NCBI RefSeq assembly: GCF_055900595.2
Contig: NZ_CM148325.1
Strand: one strand, 5' to 3'
DNA length: 64,000 bases
Made by a program: the position numbers and the translations under genes. The first letter of the stretch is position 1; every line of letters starts with the position of its first letter. Shown here piece after piece: positions 6,421-42,411 of the stretch. Below the pieces are notes generated by a model, which searched no databases, was not told the origin of the DNA, and saw nothing but the letters and a program-made list of their open reading frames with translations.

Positions 6421-8579
6421 GCAGCAGACCCCTTATTCTTCTCCTGCAACACCACCCGTCGCGCCGTGGGTTCGCTCTGTTCACGCAAAATGGCCTCTTT
6501 CGCGCCATCCATCACAATCCGCCCCTGATCCATCACGATAATGCGGTCCACCAGTTGCAGCATCGCCGTGCGGTGAGTGGCGATGACCAGCGTGCGATGC
6601 CCAATCCACTGTTTTAGTTGTTCAATTAAATACGCTTCCGCCATTTCATCCAGCGAGGCGCTGGGTTCATCGAGCAGGACGATGTTGGGTTGAGAGATGA
6701 GGAGCCGCGCCAGCAGCAGCGTTTGCCGCTGGCCGCCAGAAAGACCAAATCCCCCTTCCTGAATCATGTAGTTAAGGCCGTTTTTCTGCTTCTGCACAAA
6801 CGGCAGCGCCCCGCTGAGGGTTAATGCGCGTTCGATATCTTCATCGCTGGCCTCCGGCATCCCCATGGTGAGGTTTTCCCGCAGCGAACCGAAGAACAGT
6901 CGCCCGGTCTGGCTGAGCAGCCCCATGTCGCGACGCAGATCTGCCGGATCAAGCTGCCCGATGCTGATGTTATCCAGCAGCACCTGCCCCTGCTGGGCGA
7001 TACGCATTCCGGCGAGCATTTGCAGTAGCGTTGATTTACCCGCGCCGTTGCGCCCGAGAATGGCGATTTTCTCACCGGCCTGAATGTTGAGTTTGCCAAT
7101 CGCTACATCGGCAATTTTCTCTTCTTCGTCGTAATAAAACACCGCGTTGCTAAACTGATAATTACCGTGCAGTACCGCTTTATGCACCAGTTTGCCGTGC
7201 TCCGGCTGATCCACCGGGCGCTTCATCAGTTCATCAAGCCCGTTACGCGCCACTTTCGCCTGCTGCCAGCGCGAAAGCACGCCGGATATCTGCGACAGCG
7301 GCGCGATGGTGCGCGAAGCCAGAATCGTCGTTCCGACCAGCGCGCCGGTGGTCATGTCGCCGCTCATCACCATAAAGCAGCCCACCAACAGCACCACCAC
7401 ATAGACGATGGATTGCACTTCCTGCGTCCAGGTGAGCAGCAGCCCGGTGAGAAAACGTTGCTTCATGCTGATAGATGACGCCACGTCGTTGGTGTGATTC
7501 CACTGATTCTGGAAACGCTGTTCAGCACGCAGCAGTTTAATGTCTTCAATCGACTGCACGGCCTCGACAAGCGTAGCGTTGCGCACTGCCGATTCGCGCA
7601 TCCCTTCGTTCGCCAGCCGCGCCAGCGGGCGTTGTACCAGCAGGCCGGGGATCACCAGCAACGGCAGCGCCAGCAAAACAACCAGCACCAGCCAGCCGCC
7701 GATCATCCACAGAATAAAAACAAACAGCAGGAAGAATGGCAGATCCGCTACCGCGCCAATGGTGGTGGAGGTGATCAGCTCCCGCACCGATTCCAGTTCG
7801 CGGATCTGTGAGATAAACGATCCGGTGGATTTCGATCGCACGTTATTTTTCAGCCGTAATGCGTGACCAAACACGCGATCCGAAATACGCAGATCCGCCC
7901 GTTTGCCGATCACATCGGAAAGGTGTGTGCGCACCATGCGCATACAGAACTCAAACAGGATCGCCATCATCACCCCGGCGAACAGCACCCATAGCGTCGG
8001 GTAGGACTGCGCCGGAACAACGCGGTCGTAAACCTGCATCGAGAAAATCATCGCCGCCAGCGCCAGCACGTTCGCCACCAGCGAGGCCAGCATAATATCG
8101 CCGTAGCGCCGCCAGTCTTTTAGCGAAAGATTCCAGAACCAGTTAGCCTGATACGGGCGAATGTAGTCATCCACCCGCGCATCGGGAATGGCGCTGAGCG
8201 GTCGTAGCAGCGCCAGTTCAACGATTTTGTCTTCTATATCCGTGACGTTTAGCGTAGTTTCCAGCCCTTCGTCACCGCTGAACTGAACGCTGATATTGTC
8301 GTGATTGTCGCGGCGGGTGATAACGCCAATCTGTTGATTATCAAACACCGCGATCAGCGGCAGCCGCCAGGGGTTAAGCGAATCAGCGGAAAATTCTACC
8401 AGCCGTAGCCCCATTCCCAGTTGCCGCGCCATGTCGGTGAGCAACTCTTCCCGCTTGCTGTCGCGCTCCCAGTTGACGGTCGCGCGCACATTCTCCTGGG
8501 AAAAATCGAGGCGGTAATAGCGCGCCACGGCGATCATCGCCTCCAGCCAGGCTTCCACGGACTGGGCATTTTTTTTCAT
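6417..8579 (-). CDS. type I secretion ABC transporter with N-terminal C39-like domain (HlyB/LapB type)
   Basis: 720 aa; Walker A GRNGAGKST, ABC signature LSGGQRQ, Walker B LLDEPSASLD, six-TM core, N-terminal peptidase-like domain. Confidence 0.9.
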   Translation of the reverse strand: MKKNAQSVEAWLEAMIAVARYYRLDFSQENVRATVNWERDSKREELLTDMARQLGMGLRLVEFSADSLNPWRLPLIAVFDNQQIGVITRRDNHDNISVQFSGDEGLETTLNVTDIEDKIVELALLRPLSAIPDARVDDYIRPYQANWFWNLSLKDWRRYGDIMLASLVANVLALAAMIFSMQVYDRVVPAQSYPTLWVLFAGVMMAILFEFCMRMVRTHLSDVIGKRADLRISDRVFGHALRLKNNVRSKSTGSFISQIRELESVRELITSTTIGAVADLPFFLLFVFILWMIGGWLVLVVLLALPLLVIPGLLVQRPLARLANEGMRESAVRNATLVEAVQSIEDIKLLRAEQRFQNQWNHTNDVASSISMKQRFLTGLLLTWTQEVQSIVYVVVLLVGCFMVMSGDMTTGALVGTTILASRTIAPLSQISGVLSRWQQAKVARNGLDELMKRPVDQPEHGKLVHKAVLHGNYQFSNAVFYYDEEEKIADVAIGKLNIQAGEKIAILGRNGAGKSTLLQMLAGMRIAQQGQVLLDNISIGQLDPADLRRDMGLLSQTGRLFFGSLRENLTMGMPEASDEDIERALTLSGALPFVQKQKNGLNYMIQEGGFGLSGGQRQTLLLARLLISQPNIVLLDEPSASLDEMAEAYLIEQLKQWIGHRTLVIATHRTAMLQLVDRIIVMDQGRIVMDGAKEAILREQSEPTARRVVLQEKNKGSAA

Positions 8580-8582
8580 TCT

Positions 8583-11500
8583 CTACACCACCATCAACTG
8601 ATGATTCGCCAGTAAAGTGGCGAGGTCGGTGTGCACGCCCGTCAGCGTGACCATGTTAGTTGTCGCAAAGCCGCCGCCCGTGCCGTCACGGTCGATCTGC
8701 ACGATGGTGTCGCTGCCGCTCTGGGTAACTTTGACAAAATCACCGATGTTTCCGGCCTGGGCATCCAGCGTTGCCACACCGTTGACATAGCTGGCTTTGC
8801 CGTTTCCGGTGTAGCCGCTGCCCTGTAACAGTTCACGAATATCAATGCGATCGGTGTCGGCGGTGCCTTCCCAGGTGCCTACCGTAAAGCCATTCACCAC
8901 GTCCGAACCGTTGCCCCCGGCGGCGTCACTGGCGTTAAGCAGTTTATATAGCAAGGTGTCGTGACCGCCGTTACCGATGTTGAGCGTGTCGTTGCCGCCG
9001 CGCCCTTCCAGTTGGTTATCGCCGCTGCTGCCGGTCAGAGTGTCATTAAAATTCGAGCCGGAAATCCCTTCGATATTGGTAAATGTCGAGGTATTAAAAC
9101 CGGTGGCCTGTGCGGTGGTAACGCTTAAGTTAGCGGTGACGCCCACCGTTGAGAGACGGAAATCGACCACGTCCATGCCGCCGTTCGCCAGCCAGGTTCC
9201 TGTGCCGGAGCTGTACACCCAGCCGCCGGAACCGTCGTAGGTGTCGGTGCCTGCGGTGGCGAAGAAGGTGTCGTTATAGCCAGTGCCGACAAACTTGCCG
9301 TTGTTGCTCGCCGTACCCGCTTCAGCACTGAGATCGTAAGCGTGAGTAGCATCGGTGGCCTGTAAGCCACCCCAGCTGGTATTCACCGTCTGGTCGATAT
9401 TGCTGGCGGTGGTGCCAGTGGATTTGATCAGCACCGCGTTGTAGGTTTCTCCAGCGTTAAGTCCGTAGAAGTTGACCAGCGCCGAGGTGTCGTTAACGCC
9501 CATCCCCGACTGCGGGTTGATGATTTGTGTCGCCACCAGCACGCCCGCCGAGTTGTACAGCTTCACGGTATTGCCGTAATAGACATTAATACCGTTGGGA
9601 TCGGTGATACGCAGGTGCAACGAGGTGCCGTAGCTCACCGTGTTAGTGTTACGGATGAGGAACACGCTGCCCGACTGTTTGGTTACCAGCACATCCACCG
9701 CGCCGTCCCAGTCGTAGTCCATTGCCGCCACGCCGCTGGTGGTGCCGCTCTGGCTGCCACCGAGTGCCGATTGTGTCCAGTTACTGGCGTTGCTGACGTT
9801 AGTATAAAGATACGACTGTCCGGTCTGGGCGATACGGGCGATGTCCATTAACCCGTCATGATCCCAGTCGACGGCCAGGCTGAATTGACTGGCGTAGGTG
9901 GTTGCCGTCGCGCCGACCGCCACCGGGCTACCCAGCACGCCGTTGGTGTTGAATAACAGCGAGCCGTAGTTAGCTCTTCCCTGGCTGGCGGGCAGGAAGA
10001 GGTCCATATCGCCGTCACCATCGAAATCGGCCCATGTCATGGAAACGGATGTCGAGTTTCCCCCCGAGCCAGGACTACTGAGGAAAGTATTGACGGTGTT
10101 TTGTCCCCAGACGAAGGTGCCATTGCCCTGGCTTATCAACGATGAGAGGGTGAAGTTGTTGTTCAGGTTGAAAGTGTGCTGAACCAGATCAATTCTGCCG
10201 TCATTATTAAGATCGACACCGGAACCTTCGTTGAGTGACAAATAACCTGTCACCGCCCCACCGACCGTAGCACTCCCCCCGTTATTAGCGGTGGTGGAGT
10301 TGCCTGTCAGGGTGCCGGCGTTGTTCCACAGGAAAGTGTTGGAGTCCGGCCCCCCGGCGTCGCCAATCCAGAAATCAAGATAACCGTCGCCCTCTTTATC
10401 GAACGCCACAATCGAGCCATACCACGTCAGGGTGCCAACGTTCACCTGGATGGCGCTGGAAAACGTACCGTCGCCGTTATTAGTAAAGCCGTTGATATAC
10501 CCCGTGCCGTAGTCATCACGGGTAATAAACAGATCGCCCGTACCGTTACGGTTGTAATCGGCGATGGAGCTGGTGGCATAGTTGTTGCCACTTTGCACCA
10601 GCGTCAGGGCGGTTTTCGACCAGGTGAGCGGATCGGTGGATTGCATAATTTGCTGGTTGGCCAGCACCGTCCACATCCCGTGGTTGTCGAGTCCATAAGT
10701 CAGCCCCCAGGCGGTGGATTTGCTGGTGGTGGTCCAGGTCGGTGTGTAATCTATCGCCGCGTTAACCGTTACCGTGCCAGTGCTGACGTTGGCGGTGTTG
10801 CCATTGCCCGCCGAGCTTTTCACCTGCGCGGTGACGTTATAGGCGGTCGCAGACGCCGCCAGCGCGTCGGTATCCGGCAGTTGTACATACCAGGTGTTGT
10901 GCGCCGGATCGACGACCACCGCACCGCCTGGCTGCGAAGTGTAAGTTTTGCCGTTGATCACCACTTCAACATACTGTCCGCTGGCGAGTGCCGCGGTGAG
11001 TACGCCGCTGATAATCGGCGTGGTATCGCGTGTGGTTTGATTGGTGATTTGCGCAAGCGTGGTCGGAATAGAGGTATCGACCGTCAGGACAAAATCACTG
11101 GAGGAGGTGATATTCCCGGCCAGATCCACCACTCGCGCACTGTAGGTGTACGCGCCGCTGACCAGACCACTGTCGCTGTAAGTCCAGTTCAGCGCGCCGA
11201 CCATCGTTACCGCACCTAACAGCAGACCGTTACGGTAGAGGTAAACGACTTCACCGCTGGCAAGCGGCGCAGAGAGCACGCCGTTGAGCAACGGCGTGGT
11301 GTCGTCGGTGGCCTGCGAATTGCTAAACGTCCCCTGCCGCTGCCCGACATCATCGGTATACGACACAATGGTCGGCGTGGCGGTGGGGTTAATCGTATCG
11401 ACCACCACCGTTTTCGATACCACCGGGCCTGTATTTCCCGCCAGATCCAGCACCCGTACCTGATAAACGTAGCTGCCGTCGGTCAGCGTGCGGCTGTCAG

Positions 11501-32951: not shown

Positions 32952-33251
32952 TTAACCAGTCTGTTTCCCTGATTGGGGTGACGTTGTTTCGACGTGCCCA
33001 CAGTGTGCGAGAGCCGGGGCTATTTGCCCGTGTTCTGGGTCGATGCGGTCATACATAAACCAATTCTGATACTTATGAAAACGGGGGTGACCAAATATCT
33101 TAATTGCAGATTCCAATGTCATCTTAGATTTGTCACGCTCATAGCCGTGATAGGTTGTGTAATTAAGCCCTACTAAATCAACAAATTGCTGTTTTGTTAG
33201 CCTTTCCGAATCTCGCATGATCGCTAACTTTTCACCTTGAGTATTTGACAT
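32952..33251 (-). CDS. C: P2 C-type immunity repressor
   Basis: 99 aa, MSNTQGEKLAIMRDSERLTKQQFVDL...GQIAPALAHCGHVETTSPQSGKQTG closely resembles P2 C. Confidence 0.9.
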   Translation of the reverse strand: MSNTQGEKLAIMRDSERLTKQQFVDLVGLNYTTYHGYERDKSKMTLESAIKIFGHPRFHKYQNWFMYDRIDPEHGQIAPALAHCGHVETTSPQSGKQTG

Positions 33252-34848: not shown

Positions 34849-34970
34849 ATATTCTTATCTCGTGGTTAATTCTCATCCTCGCCATTATTTGCGCGGTGGG
34901 AATCATGCGAATTATTAACGGCATTAAAACCATCGAATCATTATTTACTGGCGACAAGCGCCATAAATAA
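34845..34970 (+). CDS. small hydrophobic peptide (41 aa, MNILISWLILILAIICAVGIM...), translationally coupled
   Basis: hand translation; ATGA overlap with upstream ORF; below the ORF-track size cut-off. Confidence 0.3.
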   Translation: MNILISWLILILAIICAVGIMRIINGIKTIESLFTGDKRHK

Positions 34971-35050
34971 ATAACCGGAAATTACCAGAAAGCAAGAAAA
35001 CATCCGCAACGGCGGAGGGATTCCCTTACGCCTGAAATAAGGAGCAGCGA

Positions 35051-35515: not shown

Positions 35516-36001
35516 TTAGCGGGAAGCGCCAACCGTAAGGCTGGCAATGATTTTTTCGGAGAGTGAGAGAGATTCGCGATGATTAAGACCAAGAGCAGCA
35601 CAAGCTTTATTGCGCGCCGGGTTGTCCATGCATTCAAGCACCGGAGAGTCCTGCTTCTCAATTTCCACCAGTCGCGCCAGCAACACCTCCGTGCTGAGAC
35701 CGTCGCTTTCAGTAATCAGGACGTTATAGCGATGAGCCTGTTCTTTTGCAGCCTGAGCGCGTCGCCCAAATTTCCAGGCGATATTGCAGCCACTAAGCAC
35801 AGCCACGATACCACCCAGCAACCAACTGAAATTGCTGTCTGCAAACACAGTAGCCCCAGACGTAAGGATGACAGCATTAATCACCGTATCCATACGGCGG
35901 TTAAACACCTCCGAAATATGTTCAAGCCAGTAACTGTTCCAGAGACGAAACATGACCTCGTGTCGCCGTTCGGCATGATTTTCAGTTGGTTGTCTGTTCA
36001 T
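35516..36001 (-). CDS. 2-TM membrane protein encoded antisense to the early operon (possible moron)
   Basis: 161 aa with a hydrophobic hairpin (VINAVILTSGATVF ... FSWLLGGIVAVLSGCNIAW) followed by a charged helical tail. Confidence 0.5.
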   Translation of the reverse strand: MNRQPTENHAERRHEVMFRLWNSYWLEHISEVFNRRMDTVINAVILTSGATVFADSNFSWLLGGIVAVLSGCNIAWKFGRRAQAAKEQAHRYNVLITESDGLSTEVLLARLVEIEKQDSPVLECMDNPARNKACAALGLNHRESLSLSEKIIASLTVGASR

Positions 36002-36799: not shown

Positions 36800-37119
36800 G
36801 CAATCACCATGTACACACAAAAAAACCGCTTGCAACAACAAACCGGAACAGGGTACGCTTCCCCCGCACCTCATAAAACGGGTGTCGGGTTTCGCAGCCT
36901 GCTGACTAGCAAAGCGCACAACCGCGCCAGCGGTTTTTTTGTGCGTACTGTATTGCCACGTCTTTTTCGCACACGAATTATGGCGGGGCGTACGGGGCCG
37001 ACTTCGGTCGGGCCGGGTTCTTTGCTAGCCGGTACTGCGAACCTCGTACGTCTCGCCACCCACAGTTTCGCAGCTCTGGATGGTGAGTTTTTAAAACTTA
37101 CTAGCAAAGAGGCCACACC

Positions 37120-37338
37120 ATGGCAAACCGCAAACAGCGCCGCGCTACTGCGGAGCATCACCACGTCCGCGCCCAAATCGACAAACGCCTTTTCCGCGCA
37201 TCACGCGTTGCACGCATCATGCACATCAACATGCTGCATGAACGCAGAGGGGCACTACCGAACACCTATATCGCCTCCGTTTTCAGCTATCTGGCGGACG
37301 ATCTCGCCGAGCTGCAACACCTCATTAACCAGCACTGA
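37120..37338 (+). CDS. hypothetical small protein (72 aa)
   Basis: ATG preceded by aaagagg RBS. Confidence 0.35.
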   Translation: MANRKQRRATAEHHHVRAQIDKRLFRASRVARIMHINMLHERRGALPNTYIASVFSYLADDLAELQHLINQH

Positions 37339-37410
37339 TAAACATCCCGAAGCCATCCTGCGCCCGTTCGCGGGAGGCTTCCACACATCTGTAGTCGGGA
37401 GGATTGCGCC

Positions 37411-37779
37411 ATGATTCTGGCTGACGATTTTCTGGAGTACCTGAACAACACCGAGCGCGACCTGTACGCGCGCGTTCTCACCCGTTACGAGAAATACAAA
37501 CTTTCACTGCCAGAGCATCAACTCCGCGAAGGCGATATCGACATTGAAGGGCGCTACATCGTCAGGCGCCGCATAGCGGGCTACGGCATCTGGCGTGTCA
37601 CCGGACTTGAGCATTCATTGCTGACCATCTGCCAGAGTCCGTCCGGCGTGATAACGGAGATCGTCGCCGATAGTCTGCGACTCACCCATCACAGCGCCAC
37701 CCCGGAAGAAACGCTGGCAGAAACCCAGCGTCTGTGTCGCGTCATTGCCAACGCCGCCCTCCGCGCAGACAGGAGGTAA
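37411..37779 (+). CDS. hypothetical protein (122 aa) immediately upstream of gene A
   Basis: ORF with RBS ggagg; ends 4 nt before A. Confidence 0.45.
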   Translation: MILADDFLEYLNNTERDLYARVLTRYEKYKLSLPEHQLREGDIDIEGRYIVRRRIAGYGIWRVTGLEHSLLTICQSPSGVITEIVADSLRLTHHSATPEETLAETQRLCRVIANAALRADRR

Positions 37780-37782
37780 GCG

Positions 37783-40272
37783 ATGGAGTTCGTCAGAGAC
37801 TGGCAAAAACCGCGCCCCGCTATCGGGCGCGAAGGCTTACCCGTACCTGAAACCGCACTGGATACCATCCTGAAGTGTTACCGCGCAGACGAAGAGCGCG
37901 CACTGCACGCTGAAGAGCAGGGTCATCCGCTTGCGGGCACAACCATCGGTAACGCGATCGACAAGTGGGAAGGCGCACAGGAGCGCCAGGAAGAGGCCAT
38001 CACGCTCACACAGGAAGCGAGAAGACACCCGCCCACCCTTATTGAGGAAACCCTCAAAGAGCTGGACACCCTGCCCAAGTGGTTGAGGCTGCCGCTGATT
38101 AAGCACCTGAACTTTTTAAGGCGCAAACAGGAGGACGAACAACAGAAAGGCAAGCGCGGCAAGGACACCCGCAAATATGAGCGCTTCCTGAAAAACGGCA
38201 TCCCCGCACGTCTTCGCCGTATTCGTGAGATTAACGCTCGCTTTGCACCGTTAAGTTTTCAGGCCGCTGCCATGCGCGAGAGTCTGGAAGAACTGATCAC
38301 ACTGCCGAACCTGAGCCGTGAACGCATCCAGAAAATAGCCGTACTGCTTGCCAGCGCCGTTAAAATGCATCTTGCCGACGCAATGGACAAGGCCCGCGAA
38401 ATAACAGGGAACGACAAAGACGACAACCTGAACAACTGGCTGATTGCCTACCAGTATATTGGTCGCCGTGTCCTGAAGCTGGGGATCACCCCACCATACT
38501 GGAGCGCCCTTGAACTCCGCCCCGACCGCAGAAGCCCCCCGGACGTGACACTGGTTCCGGGCGCTGTTTTGCGCCTGAACGACGCCGAATGGTGGAATAA
38601 AAAACTTCGCCAGATGCACGACGTCTGGCGTGAGGAACTTTTACGTGCAGCGGGCCTTGTATCCCGCCAGACCTCCGTTTATGTGAGCCGTGAAGCGCTG
38701 GCAGACTTCCGCGAAAAACAGGCCCGTACCCGCGATTTTCTCAAAGCGCACGACGTGGAGAACGAAGACGGCGAACGCATCAGTCTGGAAGATATCTACT
38801 ACGCCAGTACATCCAACCCGCATAACCGCCGCAACGAGATGATGGCGTGCGTTAAGGGAATGGAGCTTATCGCACAGGAACGCGGCGACGTGGCCTTCTT
38901 CGTCACGGTCACAGCCCCGTCTCGTTTTCACAGCGTCACCGACGCAGGCACGCTGAACCCGAAATACAAAGGCGCAACCGTAAAGGACGCCAGCGACTAT
39001 CTGGTTTATAACTTCTTCGCCTCCGCCCGCAAACTCATCAAAAAAGAGAAGCGGGGCTGGTACGGCATTCGCACCGTGGAGCCTCACCACGACGGCACGC
39101 CCCACTGGCACATGCTGGTATTCACAAGCCCTGAGAACGAAGAGCGCATCACGGAAATCATGTGCAATGCCGCCATTCGCGAAGACCGGGCAGAGCTGGG
39201 CGACGACATCACCCCGCGCTTCAAGTGCGAGAAGATAGATCCCGAAAAAGGCACGCCAACCAGCTACATCGCCACCTACATAGGCAAAGGCATTGACGCC
39301 GCTGCATTCGGCGACACGGATCCAAAAACAGGTAAACCGCCCGTTGACCACGAAAGCGGAAAACCTATGGCGGACACCGTGGAAAACGCCGTCGCCTGGG
39401 CGCGCCTGCATCGCATTCGCCAGTTCCAGTTCTTTGGCCTCCCTTCCCGTCAGGTGTGGCGTGAGTTCCGCCGCCTTGCCGGACAAATGGCACGCAACCC
39501 GAAGGGGCCGCAGGCACTGACCAACCCCAAAGCCGACGCCCTCCTTGTTGCAGCCGATACGGGGTGTTTTGCCAGCTACATCATGCATCAGGGCGGTGTG
39601 CTCATTCCCCGTAGTGAATATCTGGCCCGCACAGCCTACGTCACCGCAGAAGAGCCGAACAATTACAGCGAATTCCCCGAGCGCATTTACGGTATCCGCA
39701 TGCCGGAACTGGGGGAGGACTTCACGTTATGCACCCACCCGGAAGAGTGGAAAATCGTCAGAAAGGAACCGGAACCAGACAACCGCACGGGCGAGGGTTT
39801 TGACCTTCAGGGCGGCCCCGCCGCCCCTTGGACTCGTGGCAATAACTGTCACCCTGACGAAAAAACAACCAACAACAGCACACAAACAGAACAGTCAGAG
39901 TGGGCAAAACTGCCCCCCTTACCCCCATCGTCGGACGGTTTTGTGAGCTGGTTTAAGTCGCTTAAGAGGCCGGACAGGAAAAAACTACAAAGATTGCTCA
40001 AAAAACGCACCGAAGAGAGTCGCCAGAACGCCAGCGGCGGCACCGACACACCCACCGACACCATTAACCTGGGCGTTGTGCTGCCGGAACTGCCGGAAAT
40101 CGTGCAAGTCCGCCGCGATCTGGAAGCGCTGGGCGCGGACTTCCCCGAAGCAATGGCCCATTCCGTCTTTATGGGTGCCCGCGTTCGTCTGGGTGACGGT
40201 CGCACCGTTCACCGCGACGAGCAGACCGGGCGCATCACCGTCACCAGTCTGCAACCGGAGGCGAAACCATGA
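37783..40272 (+). CDS. A: P2 gpA-type rolling-circle replication initiator
   Basis: 829 aa; position after the early genes and length fit the P2/186 A protein; HxH-type motif region (HWHMLVF). Confidence 0.85.
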   Translation: MEFVRDWQKPRPAIGREGLPVPETALDTILKCYRADEERALHAEEQGHPLAGTTIGNAIDKWEGAQERQEEAITLTQEARRHPPTLIEETLKELDTLPKWLRLPLIKHLNFLRRKQEDEQQKGKRGKDTRKYERFLKNGIPARLRRIREINARFAPLSFQAAAMRESLEELITLPNLSRERIQKIAVLLASAVKMHLADAMDKAREITGNDKDDNLNNWLIAYQYIGRRVLKLGITPPYWSALELRPDRRSPPDVTLVPGAVLRLNDAEWWNKKLRQMHDVWREELLRAAGLVSRQTSVYVSREALADFREKQARTRDFLKAHDVENEDGERISLEDIYYASTSNPHNRRNEMMACVKGMELIAQERGDVAFFVTVTAPSRFHSVTDAGTLNPKYKGATVKDASDYLVYNFFASARKLIKKEKRGWYGIRTVEPHHDGTPHWHMLVFTSPENEERITEIMCNAAIREDRAELGDDITPRFKCEKIDPEKGTPTSYIATYIGKGIDAAAFGDTDPKTGKPPVDHESGKPMADTVENAVAWARLHRIRQFQFFGLPSRQVWREFRRLAGQMARNPKGPQALTNPKADALLVAADTGCFASYIMHQGGVLIPRSEYLARTAYVTAEEPNNYSEFPERIYGIRMPELGEDFTLCTHPEEWKIVRKEPEPDNRTGEGFDLQGGPAAPWTRGNNCHPDEKTTNNSTQTEQSEWAKLPPLPPSSDGFVSWFKSLKRPDRKKLQRLLKKRTEESRQNASGGTDTPTDTINLGVVLPELPEIVQVRRDLEALGADFPEAMAHSVFMGARVRLGDGRTVHRDEQTGRITVTSLQPEAKP

Positions 40273-40679: not shown

Positions 40680-40822
40680 AAAGAATCGCCGGAACTGACT
40701 ACCAGGAGCTGCTTAAAGCGGTGGAAAACTACCGTTCAGCGCTGGTGTGGTGTGAGATTAAGCCCTGTGACCCGGGAGCAGTTAAGGATTGCAACCGGCG
40801 CGTGAGGACATTCAGCGCGTAA
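40676..40822 (+). CDS. hypothetical 48-aa Cys-containing peptide, coupled to upstream ORF
   Basis: hand translation MKRIAGTDYQELLKAVENYRSALVWCEIKPCDPGAVKDCNRRVRTFSA; ATGA overlap. Confidence 0.3.
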   Translation: MKRIAGTDYQELLKAVENYRSALVWCEIKPCDPGAVKDCNRRVRTFSA

Positions 40823-40937
40823 TTGGCTACCGCTATGTAGCAGCCATTATTGACCTTGTGAATGAACTGGAGGAAGCAAAAGAGCGCATCGCAGAACTGG
40901 AAACCCAGAATAACCCCAACCAGCAGGAGCAGAAGCC

Positions 40938-41519
40938 ATGAAAAAAAGAGACCTTAAAAAACACCTCCGTAGTCAGATTGAATATTTTGAAGATAAGGCT
41001 GCAAAAACAGGGCTTTCCGGTAAAGAGAACATGAACTTCAGGGCACACCTCCTGACGTGGAGAATACTTAATATCACGAGAGATGGACTTGAGCCGCTAG
41101 CCTACCTGATGGAAGATGGCGAGACCCTCATACAGGATCCCAATGTGGAAATGGAGAAGAAAGAGATGGACCTGCCGATAATCGGGCTGTTTGAGATCCC
41201 TGAACTAATAGGACGTTATGAACACGAAAACCGCCAGCTTGCCGCCTTTTTATCCGTGACAATCGAACGACTGGAAACCGTGAAACACGATATTCCGTTC
41301 GGTTTTGATGAGCGCACCGAGGGTGATTTGCTCAGCTTTCAGATTGCCCTGAACGTGCTCACCGCAGAGCCTTCTGCGTGGCTACGCCCGGAACGGCACC
41401 ACAACACGTTCGCATTTACCGTAATTCCCTACGATGCCGCACAGGAAGAGGATAACTTCGAGACCAGGCTTGTTCCCCTGTATCAGATTGCGGATTTCTA
41501 TACGTTGATTCGCTGGTAA
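40938..41519 (+). CDS. hypothetical 193-aa acidic protein (prophage cargo)
   Basis: ORF followed by a strong intrinsic terminator; no recognisable family. Confidence 0.55.
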   Translation: MKKRDLKKHLRSQIEYFEDKAAKTGLSGKENMNFRAHLLTWRILNITRDGLEPLAYLMEDGETLIQDPNVEMEKKEMDLPIIGLFEIPELIGRYEHENRQLAAFLSVTIERLETVKHDIPFGFDERTEGDLLSFQIALNVLTAEPSAWLRPERHHNTFAFTVIPYDAAQEEDNFETRLVPLYQIADFYTLIRW

Positions 41520-41534
41520 TCCCCCACAGTAAAA

Positions 41535-41557
41535 CAGCCCGACCGGGCTGTTTTTTT
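41535..41557 (+). terminator. rho-independent terminator
   Basis: cagcccgaccgggctg hairpin followed by T7. Confidence 0.6.
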
Positions 41558-41614
41558 ATCTGATATTTTTGATAACGTTGACCGGCTCATTAGCAAAAAA
41601 GCAAAGAGGAAAAC

Positions 41615-42001
41615 ATGAAAGCCCGTATCGGGATCATCCCGGAAAAAGCCCTGCGCCAGCACCTGATTGATATTGCCAGAGGGAAGCGAAAACCACAGCC
41701 CGACGAGCCAAAGGTATGGTTTTCATCCATCAATGCGGCAGGCCAGACGCTGAGCAATGAAAATATCGCCCTTCTGCGTCTTATGAATGAGGAGAAGCCG
41801 CAGACCATGACCGCACTTGCGGAGTTATCCGGCAGAAAACTGAGCAACCTGTCTGTAACCCTGAAAATGCTGAGCAGCTACGGTTTTGTCAGTCTGGAAA
41901 AGAAAGGGAATACTGTACACCCGAAAGCACTTTTTACCGATTTTGAAATCATCGTTGATCCGTCCGTGGGTTCAGTACATCGCGCCACCGCCCGGCCCTG
42001 A
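41615..42001 (+). CDS. standalone winged-helix DNA-binding protein (128 aa)
   Basis: C-terminal half TMTALAELSGRKLSNLSVTLKMLSSYGFVSLEKKG has wHTH character; RBS agaggaaaacATG; flanked by terminators on both sides. Confidence 0.5.
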   Translation: MKARIGIIPEKALRQHLIDIARGKRKPQPDEPKVWFSSINAAGQTLSNENIALLRLMNEEKPQTMTALAELSGRKLSNLSVTLKMLSSYGFVSLEKKGNTVHPKALFTDFEIIVDPSVGSVHRATARP

Positions 42002-42012
42002 AGTGCGCAATA

Positions 42013-42040
42013 AACAGCCCCGTTCGGGGCTGTTATTTAT
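42013..42040. terminator. bidirectional terminator between convergent genes
   Basis: cagccccgttcggggctg hairpin with T-rich flank. Confidence 0.55.
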
Positions 42041-42411
42041 TCCAGAATCAGCTGTTCAGGTGTGCAGCCGTACAGTCTGGCAAGGCGCTCAATATTTGCC
42101 CTGCGCGGGCGTTCTGTTCTTTCGAATTCGGACACGGTAGCCTGCCTGATACCCAGCGCATCCGCCACCTGCTTTTGCGTCATTCCGCGATAGATTCGCC
42201 ACGCCGCCTGCATGGTGCAGCCACGTTCCGAGAGGATGTTGACCACCTCGTTGGGATACAGCGTATCAGGCGATGCACTCGGTTCGTTCTGGACGTCCTC
42301 GTAGAGTTCGTCAAGGTCGCTGTCTCCTGCCAGTTTTTCAAACAACGCCACTGGCAGAATGACGGATACCCTGTTACCCGCACCGTCAGTAATAAACTGA
42401 ATCTGACTCAT
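42037..42411 (-). CDS. XRE-family HTH antitoxin (HigA-like)
   Basis: C-terminal MTQKQVADALGIRQATVSEFERTERPRRANIERLARLYGCTPEQL is a Cro/C1-type HTH; adjacent to RelE/ParE toxin gene. Confidence 0.7.
   Translation of the reverse strand: MSQIQFITDGAGNRVSVILPVALFEKLAGDSDLDELYEDVQNEPSASPDTLYPNEVVNILSERGCTMQAAWRIYRGMTQKQVADALGIRQATVSEFERTERPRRANIERLARLYGCTPEQLILE

Follow-up and report, generated by a model that had tools for sequence, protein, structure and literature searches.

The question raised by this locus is whether a short, repeat-rich segment in the early region of an Escherichia coli prophage acts as RNA, as DNA bound by a protein, or as a coding sequence. The segment lies in a window of 64 kb (the whole stretch of DNA that we analyzed), which shares 100% DNA identity with E. 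coli strain CM2. The host element is a P88-like (Xuanwuvirus) prophage of the P2 family whose integration adjoins glsA; among isolated phages, P88 and further members of Xuanwuvirus (Peduoviridae) are closest to it. Its early genes run from integrase, a 99-aa repressor (32952-33251), a gene in the cox position with small early ORFs, and a minus-strand 161-aa gene to a 184-aa multi-helix-turn-helix (HTH) protein, after which come the segment itself, ORFs of 72 and 122 aa, and a P2 gpA-type replication endonuclease. The repressor is of the P2 C type and matches the solved P2 C over its full length (PDB 2xcj/2l49, E 7e-25). In public records the segment is either labeled 'hypothetical protein' or has neighboring CDSs drawn through it.

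We conclude that the segment is, with high probability, an RNA-based secondary immunity cassette of this prophage, homologous to immI of P1/P7, seqA-CI-seqC of P4, and isrK of Gifsy-1, and that its most likely effect is to hold an anti-repressor-like gene and a replication gene silent. Because its two RNAs, C4 and IsrK, belong to curated, experimentally studied families, the kind of element is already known; it is this member that is unannotated and its setting that is slightly new.

Two tandem RNAs and their recognition boxes

An Rfam scan of the whole 64-kb window at the curated gathering cutoffs yielded only two matches, isrK and C4, both full length and on the plus strand. The former is an IsrK-like (P4 seqA-like) leader RNA at 36866..36940 (+; RF01394, 63.2 bits against a cutoff of 50, E 3e-12), made up of hairpin 1 (36866-71/36880-85), hairpin 2 (36886-90/36897-901), and an intrinsic terminator with a 6-bp GC-rich stem (AACCGC-GCCA-GCGGTT, 36920-36935, followed by U7, T7 in the DNA, at 36934-36940), with which a terminator scan agrees. 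The latter is a C4, or P4 CI-type, antisense RNA at 36976..37063 (+; RF01695, 82.8 bits against a cutoff of 45, E 9e-16); the match covers model positions 1-87 of 87 and comprises a 17-nt basal stem (36981-36997/37042-37058), hairpin 1 with a UUCG loop (36998-37002/37007-11), and hairpin 2 with a 12-nt loop (37012-16/37029-33). The c4-a1b1 model (RF03163), which scores 44.1 bits in P4 and 47.7 in Klebsiella NAR688, remained below its gathering score at 36853-36905 (22.3 bits against 46.7), the isrK model capturing that region instead. A match to STnc250 at 34950-35025, which reached 23.5 bits where the cutoff is 42, was rejected, and no tRNA or tmRNA was found in the 64-kb window.

A preliminary description of the segment had proposed, from its repeats and hairpins, either a structured RNA or a set of protein-binding iterons, and we recovered every one of its features, displaced by at most 1 nt. 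They map onto the two RNAs: its terminator-like hairpin is the IsrK terminator, its CCGAC-TTCG-GTCGG tetraloop hairpin (36998-37011) is C4 hairpin 1, its long-range inverted repeat is the C4 basal stem, and, among the copies of a 9-mer, the inverted one (CTTTGCTAG, 37020-28) makes up the recognition loop of hairpin 2 in C4, the direct ones (CTAGCAAAG) lying on the plus strand at 36906-36914 and 37101-37109. These three are the only copies in 64 kb, where shuffles give an expectation of 0.35. Two further repeats had escaped that description, namely a second set consisting of GTTTCGCAGC at 36889-98 and 37065-74 with the complement CTGCGAA at 37035-41, and a 23-nt inverted repeat (36811-33/36926-48). 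The structured-RNA proposal is borne out by the two full-length plus-strand family matches above cutoff and by compensatory changes in C4, although the known C4/IsrK system of P1 immI and P4 immunity had gone unrecognized in it.

For comparison we used 17 related loci, drawn from BLAST against phage records because no more than 3 viral contigs were retrieved with the 72-aa protein as query. The set holds P2-like loci (P88, 569R5, PhiR44_2, Citrobacter Shae_phiSM, and three IMG/VR contigs) together with lambdoid or Stx phages, ST64B, and Klebsiella NAR688. The repeats and their pairing potential, whose lack of conservation in related phages the preliminary description had named, together with the lack of a stable transcript, as what would speak against its reading, prove to be conserved: isrK is followed by C4 in 17/17 loci at a spacing of 24-35 nt (35 nt in the window), and also in P4. 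The minimum free energy (MFE) structure of the isolated C4 is the canonical three-helix fold, at -47.7 kcal/mol (z -4.8; 0/200 shuffles as low). Over 15 distinct C4 sequences, 99.8% of the cells in the 27 pairs hold standard pairs, and 13 of the 27 are altered on both sides in compensatory fashion; none of 500 shuffles paired as well, and the pairing collapsed once the partners were slid. Pair counts were left out for IsrK, where the MAFFT alignment mis-registers the terminator in some rows. G-U pairs, which function only in RNA of the plus strand, are frequent in the C4 stems (e.g., column pairs 11-78, 13-76, and 37-58), and we therefore conclude that selection acts on the plus-strand RNA.

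Both repeat sets can be read as recognition boxes, all on the plus strand. C4 carries the recognition sequences b' (CUUUGCUAG, 37020..37028), the inverted 9-mer of the preliminary description, in the loop of hairpin 2, and a' (CUGCGAA, 37035..37041) in its single-stranded junction. Upstream, the perfect complement of a' lies in the loop of IsrK hairpin 2 (a1, UUCGCAG, 36891..36897) and that of b' lies in the single-stranded linker of IsrK (b1, CUAGCAAAG, 36906..36914); downstream, a2 (UUCGCAG, 37067..37073) begins 3 nt past C4, and b2 (CUAGCAAAGA, 37101..37110), a 10-nt perfect complement of the C4 loop, overlaps the Shine-Dalgarno sequence AAGAGG (37107-12) of an epsilon-like gene whose ATG is at 37120. 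Pairing in the window thus extends over 7/7 nt from a' to a1 and to a2, over 9 nt from b' to b1, and over 10 nt from b' to b2. The a'/a2 match is perfect over 7 nt in 18/18 loci, a2 starting 3-7 nt past C4, and a'/a1 is perfect in 16/18 and 6 nt long in the other 2, at fixed positions, even though there are 9 different a heptamers among the 18 loci: boxes change along with their targets. For b'/b2 the match is at least 9 nt in 15/18 loci, with b1 usually matched too, and b2 abuts or overlaps the Shine-Dalgarno sequence of the next gene in every locus. The a and b boxes are moreover re-assorted between loci. Where the window has CUUUGCUAG/CUAGCAAAG for b'/b and CUGCGAA/UUCGCAG for a'/a, P88 has CUGUAGUUG/CAACUACAG and GUGGAAA/UUUCCAC, and another locus (L004) has CUGUGAUAA/UUAUCACAG and GGGCAAA/UUUGCCC. 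The 9-mer is the recognition code of an antisense system, and a'/a is its second pair.

The iteron half of the preliminary description fares differently. With its three occurrences inside 200 bp, next to the gene of a multi-HTH protein, the 9-mer could be an operator or iteron of an early HTH protein such as the 184-aa DNA-binding protein encoded just upstream. Yet the inverted copy falls precisely within the loop of an RNA hairpin, so that the copies amount to an antisense loop and two sense targets that covary in the manner of pairing RNAs; box sequences differ freely from one relative to another, always as complementary sets; the G-U pairs indicate selection on RNA of one strand; and the upstream gene is not conserved alongside the module, for P88 has a protease/lipoprotein gene there, PhiR44_2 an Ead-like one, and the lambdoids a CII/YmfL-like one. 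Because the boxes covary across loci as a complementary antisense code, we exclude this reading, to which we give very little credence. Still less probable, to the point of being negligible, is that a GC-rich spacer acquired its repeats and hairpins by chance. Taken by itself, the IsrK part does fold no better than its shuffles (z -0.4), but covariation and Rfam family matches refute such an origin, and the segment is conserved in 1108/5426 complete E. coli genomes (about one fifth).

Flanking elements, downstream genes, and a long open frame

A putative isrK promoter lies at 36830..36859 (+), with a -35 hexamer TTGCAA (36830-35), an 18-nt spacer, a -10 hexamer TACGCT (36854-59), and a predicted start at G36866. 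Because TTGCAA-18-TACGCT falls below the threshold of a consensus scan, its -10 being poor in this copy, we grade the promoter as weak here; better hexamers occupy the same position in relatives (TTGCCA-17-TACATT in P88; TTGATT-17-TACACT and TTGACT-17-TATATT in lambdoids). A second promoter-like sequence, TTGCCA-17-AATTAT at 36953-81, was judged to be due to chance because its -35 is not conserved beyond close relatives and its start would fall within the C4 stem.

The 23-nt inverted repeat joins an upstream arm (GTACACACAAAAAAACCGCTTGC, 36811..36833, +) to the 3' half and tail of the IsrK terminator (36926-36948), to which it is 91% complementary. The predicted duplex has an energy of -27 to -32 kcal/mol (z -5 to -8) in 8/8 P2-like loci and shows covariation (GUGCGUAC/GUACACAC vs ACGUGC/CACGUAC); the same duplex-energy comparison found no comparable arm in the lambdoid and Klebsiella loci. 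The arm lies 5' of the putative isrK start and is present only on transcripts that read in from upstream. We infer from these sequences that it is a candidate antiterminator, which could let early-operon transcripts bypass the IsrK terminator. On the other side of C4, a box resembling the 5' arm of the basal stem (GGAUGGUGAG, 37079..37088, +) is able to pair with the 3' arm, and boxes of this type covary (GCGGTGG/CCACCGC in phi349 and GGTGGTAGC/GCTACCACC in NAR688, as read by eye from the loci), which suggests an alternative structure with the C4 3' arm.

The presumed regulated gene is the 72-aa ORF at 37120..37338 (+), a distant homologue of epsilon, the helper-derepression protein of P4. Its product scores just under the cutoff of Pfam PF25738 Derepression (26.9 bits against 27, E 4e-6), aligns with P4 epsilon in BLASTP at 38% over 40 aa (E 4e-8), and is colinear with it in an alignment of 26% identity; RefSeq names its close relatives 'derepression protein'. 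Among 50,697 phage records, it occurs in nine P88-like records only. The C repressor of P2 represents the known target class of P4 epsilon. Downstream, and in the same presumed unit, are a 122-aa ORF (phrog_3237, 37411..37779, +) and gene A, the P2 gpA-type replication endonuclease (37783..40272, +; Pfam Phage_GPA, E 5e-102, in agreement with RefSeq annotation), presumably the last gene of the unit. A search of the small ORFs against NCBIfam gave no match.

The 201-codon open frame of the preliminary description (36809..37414, +) takes in the promoter, both RNAs, and the target boxes, crosses the epsilon-like gene out of frame, and ends in an ATGA (37411-14) whose stop overlaps the ATG of the next ORF; the frame as such is open over 36800-37414. 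It is open in 8/8 P2-like loci, with the ATGA ending on the next start each time, and in 15/18 loci it alone stays open through the module, the other two frames being closed. In P4, ORF 8812..8168, which we take to be the eta/kil reading frame with kil nested within it, is likewise open across the whole RNA module. In lambdoid relatives and P4, the first gene after b2 starts MAT(I/T)... and is in the long frame; no kil homologue was found in that frame as the first gene after b2 in the window, where the epsilon-like gene, at offset 2, takes this place. An AUG at the 5' edge of C4 (36980) is invariant, with AAUUAUGG in nearly all sequences, and corresponds to that of the translated orf45 of Gifsy-1. 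Judged by its position, the long frame is an analogue of P4 eta and may be translated.

Known systems compared and a proposed mechanism

When applied to P4, the same Rfam models place isrK at 8615-8692(-) (60.8 bits) and C4 at 8420-8507(-) (74.9 bits). In P1 and P4, C4 RNA is matured by RNase P from a longer transcript into a stable RNA of ~77 nt; details of the CI mechanism in P4 were reportedly worked out by Sabbattini in 1995 and by Forti in 1999 and 2002. IsrK has been equated with seqA and C4 with CI, in agreement with these P4 positions (PMC3632133, PMC10111431), and pairing of CI RNA with seqA and seqC leads to premature termination of the P4 replication operon (PMC4825925, PMC3632133, PMC10111431). 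The likeness to P4 comprises a leader RNA, an antisense RNA, a2/b2 beside a Shine-Dalgarno sequence, an epsilon-family gene, ORFs, and a replication gene, in the same order, as well as the long frame across the whole RNA module. The differences are equally plain. Past the P4 RNAs come kil, epsilon, orf151, orf106, and alpha; the first gene beyond b2 is thus kil (MATTLTP...), which epsilon follows with an overlap, whereas here b2 lies on the Shine-Dalgarno sequence of the epsilon-like gene, with no kil homologue, and the long frame crosses epsilon out of frame to end on the next ORF. The spacer between IsrK and C4 measures 35 nt here vs ~107 nt in P4, P2 gpA takes the place of the alpha primase as the replication gene, the 122-aa ORF shows no similarity to orf151, and the cassette is carried by a complete phage of the P2 type rather than by a satellite. 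The a/b codes also differ from those of P4, and cross-immunity with P4 is therefore not expected.

With immI of P1/P7 (c4-icd-ant1/ant2) the segment shares the RNA family (Rfam C4) and the a'/b' logic, in which the upstream boxes are a1/b1 and the next gene has a2/b2 at its ribosome-binding site. The a/b-box logic of c4 and its bearing on hetero-immunity are said to go back to Citron and Schuster in 1990. In these phages, c4 RNA blocks the region of the ribosome-binding site and prevents anti-repressor synthesis, and box changes lead to hetero-immunity (PMC8198154, PMC12197685); an anti-repressor function is under control there and is the candidate for such control here. The downstream genes there (icd/ant) are unrelated to the epsilon-like one, however, and P1 differs further in its C1 repressor and in being a plasmid prophage. 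The isrK-orf45(STnc1160)-anrP module of Gifsy-1 resembles the segment in that IsrK has its own promoter (putative here) and a leaky terminator, a C4-like region with a 5' AUG follows, and an anti-repressor-type gene lies downstream. In Gifsy-1, the read-through leader is silent, the middle part of IsrK being paired with the downstream region in the demonstrated 'structure A', and short IsrK in trans activates translation (PMC4825925); a corresponding cis pairing is predicted here, the MFE structure of a 260-nt leader pairing a1/b1 with a'/b'. Gifsy-1 differs in being lambdoid, in having a Rha/AnrP-type anti-repressor, and in its short orf45; here the frame that opens at the C4 AUG has ~145 codons, and the gene is epsilon-like. 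The conserved antiterminator-like upstream arm is specific to P2-like copies.

The mechanism that we propose builds on family membership, fold, box complementarity and covariation, overlap with the ribosome-binding site, gene order, and the P2 C-type repressor, all of which are observed. Transcription from the promoter at ~36830-36859 would produce a leader, most transcripts ending at the IsrK terminator (36940) to yield an IsrK-like RNA of ~75 nt with boxes a1 and b1. Read-through RNA would include the C4-type RNA (36976-37063), presumably excised by RNase P as in P1 and P4, which would display b' in the hairpin 2 loop and a' in the junction and pair with a2 and b2 just downstream. With b2 paired at the ribosome-binding site, translation of the 72-aa epsilon-like gene would be blocked, and the untranslated RNA would be subject to premature termination, silencing the epsilon-like gene, the 122-aa ORF, and, by a polarity that we infer by analogy with P4, gene A. 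Such silencing would act in the lysogen and on superinfecting phages that share its a/b code. The a1/b1 boxes of IsrK would compete for the C4 sequences, in cis giving an inactive fold, and short IsrK in trans may serve as a decoy or an activator, as for Gifsy-1. Two routes of escape can be envisioned: transcripts from the upstream early operon could sequester the terminator with the upstream arm, and ribosomes on the long frame would open up the folded RNAs and so keep transcription from terminating, as eta does in P4.

The sign of regulation here, repression or activation, is not certain, because the Gifsy-1 module acts positively through IsrK and a repressor role of its C4-equivalent RNA was not shown (PMC4825925). 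It is possible, if doubtful, that activator logic of this type dominates, such that the long transcript is silent through a1/b1-a'/b' pairing in cis and C4 is mainly an mRNA leader or ORF rather than a repressor acting in trans. The MFE structure of the whole leader, the invariant AUG, and the frame that starts there (in 8/8 P2-like loci open for 144-149 codons, up to an ATGA that meets the next start) are in keeping with this, as are the Gifsy-1 experiments (PMC4825925). A mere leader, however, would not need the three-helix C4 fold, on which compensatory selection is strong, the a2/b2 boxes beside the Shine-Dalgarno sequence covary with the loop as expected of an antisense repressor in trans or in cis, and the homologous RNA is an immunity repressor in P1/P7 and P4 (PMC8198154, PMC3632133, PMC12197685). 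The activator and antisense-repressor models are not mutually exclusive. We consider it unlikely, and less likely than a dominant activator logic, that the segment is mainly protein-coding, with ORF 36809..37414 a real 201-aa protein and the repeats incidental. The frame is open in all P2-like and most other relatives while other frames are closed, it is annotated as a CDS in several GenBank records (L006 and L008), and a comparable frame is translated in P4, namely eta. Against this, the predicted protein is poorly conserved among relatives while the RNA pairings are kept, and the ORF overlaps the epsilon-like gene, itself supported by homology; over this overlap a synonymous-shuffle test was weakly significant, an open frame having a probability of 0.08-0.65 per locus by chance, which is not very improbable. 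The orf45 of Gifsy-1 is also conserved in nucleotide rather than amino-acid sequence (PMC12197685). Because of the poor protein conservation and the weak shuffle result, the long frame is probably a leader kept translatable for antitermination or coupling, which any translation would serve, rather than for a functional product. The preliminary description had taken the low-complexity translation of this ORF as a sign that the DNA is non-coding; an RNA gene is indeed present, but with one frame kept open in 15/18 loci and in P4 that argument is an oversimplification, and the segment may be both an RNA gene and a translated leader.

Implications for P2-family phages

The main value of the antisense cassette proposed here is one of annotation, as a C4/IsrK RNA pair is encoded where records give 'hypothetical protein' or extended CDSs. 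The RNA immunity cassette of P1, P4, and lambdoid prophages is found also in P2-family phages, before an epsilon-like gene and gene A, a setting for which we found no description in the P88 paper, a 2026 survey of P2-like viruses, or keyword literature searches. The C repressor of P2 is not known to be SOS-cleavable, and the cassette offers a testable route for induction and superinfection immunity in phages with such a repressor. The related P88 has been recovered after mitomycin C treatment (PMC5285337). We found no LexA/SOS box or other input signal near the module; the sole perfect CTGT-N8-ACAG, at 35835, is within another gene, and the total count was at chance level. A comparable case is Tum of phage 186, a P2-family phage with a small anti-repressor-type gene outside the C-cox switch. 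Tum is controlled by LexA and unrelated in sequence, in contrast to the antisense RNA control proposed here with no LexA box nearby.

P88-like phages of the P2 family are of the helper kind exploited by P4-like satellites. We advance only tentatively the idea that these helper-type phages have a complete P4-style cassette of their own (IsrK/seqA, C4/CI, an epsilon-like gene, and a replication gene), supplemented in this lineage alone by a conserved upstream antiterminator arm and an eta-like frame overlapping the epsilon-like gene. Should an RNA-controlled epsilon-like protein turn out to inactivate the P2 C-type repressor of its own phage, this would constitute an undescribed layer of induction and immunity in P2-type phages; it would suggest a direct shared origin of the P4 immunity-epsilon module and that of its helper, and RNA-coded cross-talk between helpers and satellites would become possible. 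The many combinations of a and b boxes also make up a natural set of orthogonal antisense codes.

Recognition codes and the regulated gene

In the table of target boxes, the a and b boxes re-assort independently of each other between loci, as seen in the window, L003 (a P2-like locus) and L012 (a lambdoid one). The C4 recognition sequence a' CUGCGAA is common to the window, the P2-like loci L003, L006 and L008 and the lambdoid ASU11 and EH1910, but the window has a different b'; such sharing of one element without the other implies, at the level of sequence, that immunity codes are combinatorial and pass between P2-like and lambdoid phages. In the lambdoid loci (L009-L017) the genes after b2 begin MAT(I/V)P(T/A)L..., much as P4 kil (L019 8364) begins MATTLTPSHPE, a likeness suggesting that the RNA cassette carries the start of the regulated gene along with it.

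Possible alternative pairings within the RNA module

The 3' half of the IsrK terminator (36926-36948) has a long-range complement at 36811-36833 that is conserved and covarying, among the compared loci only in P2-like copies; on read-through transcripts this upstream arm could serve as an antiterminator. Downstream of a2, the box GGAUGGUGAG (37079-37088) resembles the 5' arm of the C4 basal stem, and because the box at this position covaries with the 3' arm of that stem in phi349 and NAR688, comparison of the sequences suggests that the two could form an alternative structure.

Open frames and annotation

Frame comparison found the promoter, IsrK, C4 and target boxes all spanned by a single open frame in 15 of the 18 loci (36809-37414 in the window; also L002-L008) and in P4 (L019 8168-8812, minus strand), where the equivalent is eta. 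In the P2-like copies this frame runs over the epsilon-like gene in a different reading phase and stops on the ATG of the next ORF (ATGA). Protein CDSs are annotated right across the RNAs in public records (L006 1450-2067; L008 1502-2119; L009/L010 1141-2295; L014 1147-2304; L019 8168-8584), with labels including "hypothetical protein" and over-extended Rha or "transcriptional regulator" genes; that of P4 is the "cI gene product". RefSeq E. coli records lack an ncRNA feature at the IsrK/C4 segment.

Neighbouring features

Phage TL-2011c (L017) has a strong Rfam match to sRNA-Xcc1 at 2523-2606 (79.6 bits; cutoff 53), ∼0.9 kb downstream of its C4 module. A sub-threshold match to STnc250 at window 34950-35025 (23.5 bits versus a cutoff of 42) is probably due to chance. 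A perfect CTGT-N8-ACAG, resembling the LexA-box core, lies at 35835-35850 inside a minus-strand gene for a 161-aa membrane-protein-like product; the window-wide total of such sites is at chance level. Downstream of gene A, at ∼40800-42300 (L001 10017-11509), DUF6516, two HTH regulators and a RelE-family toxin form a cargo or defence-like islet of the prophage.
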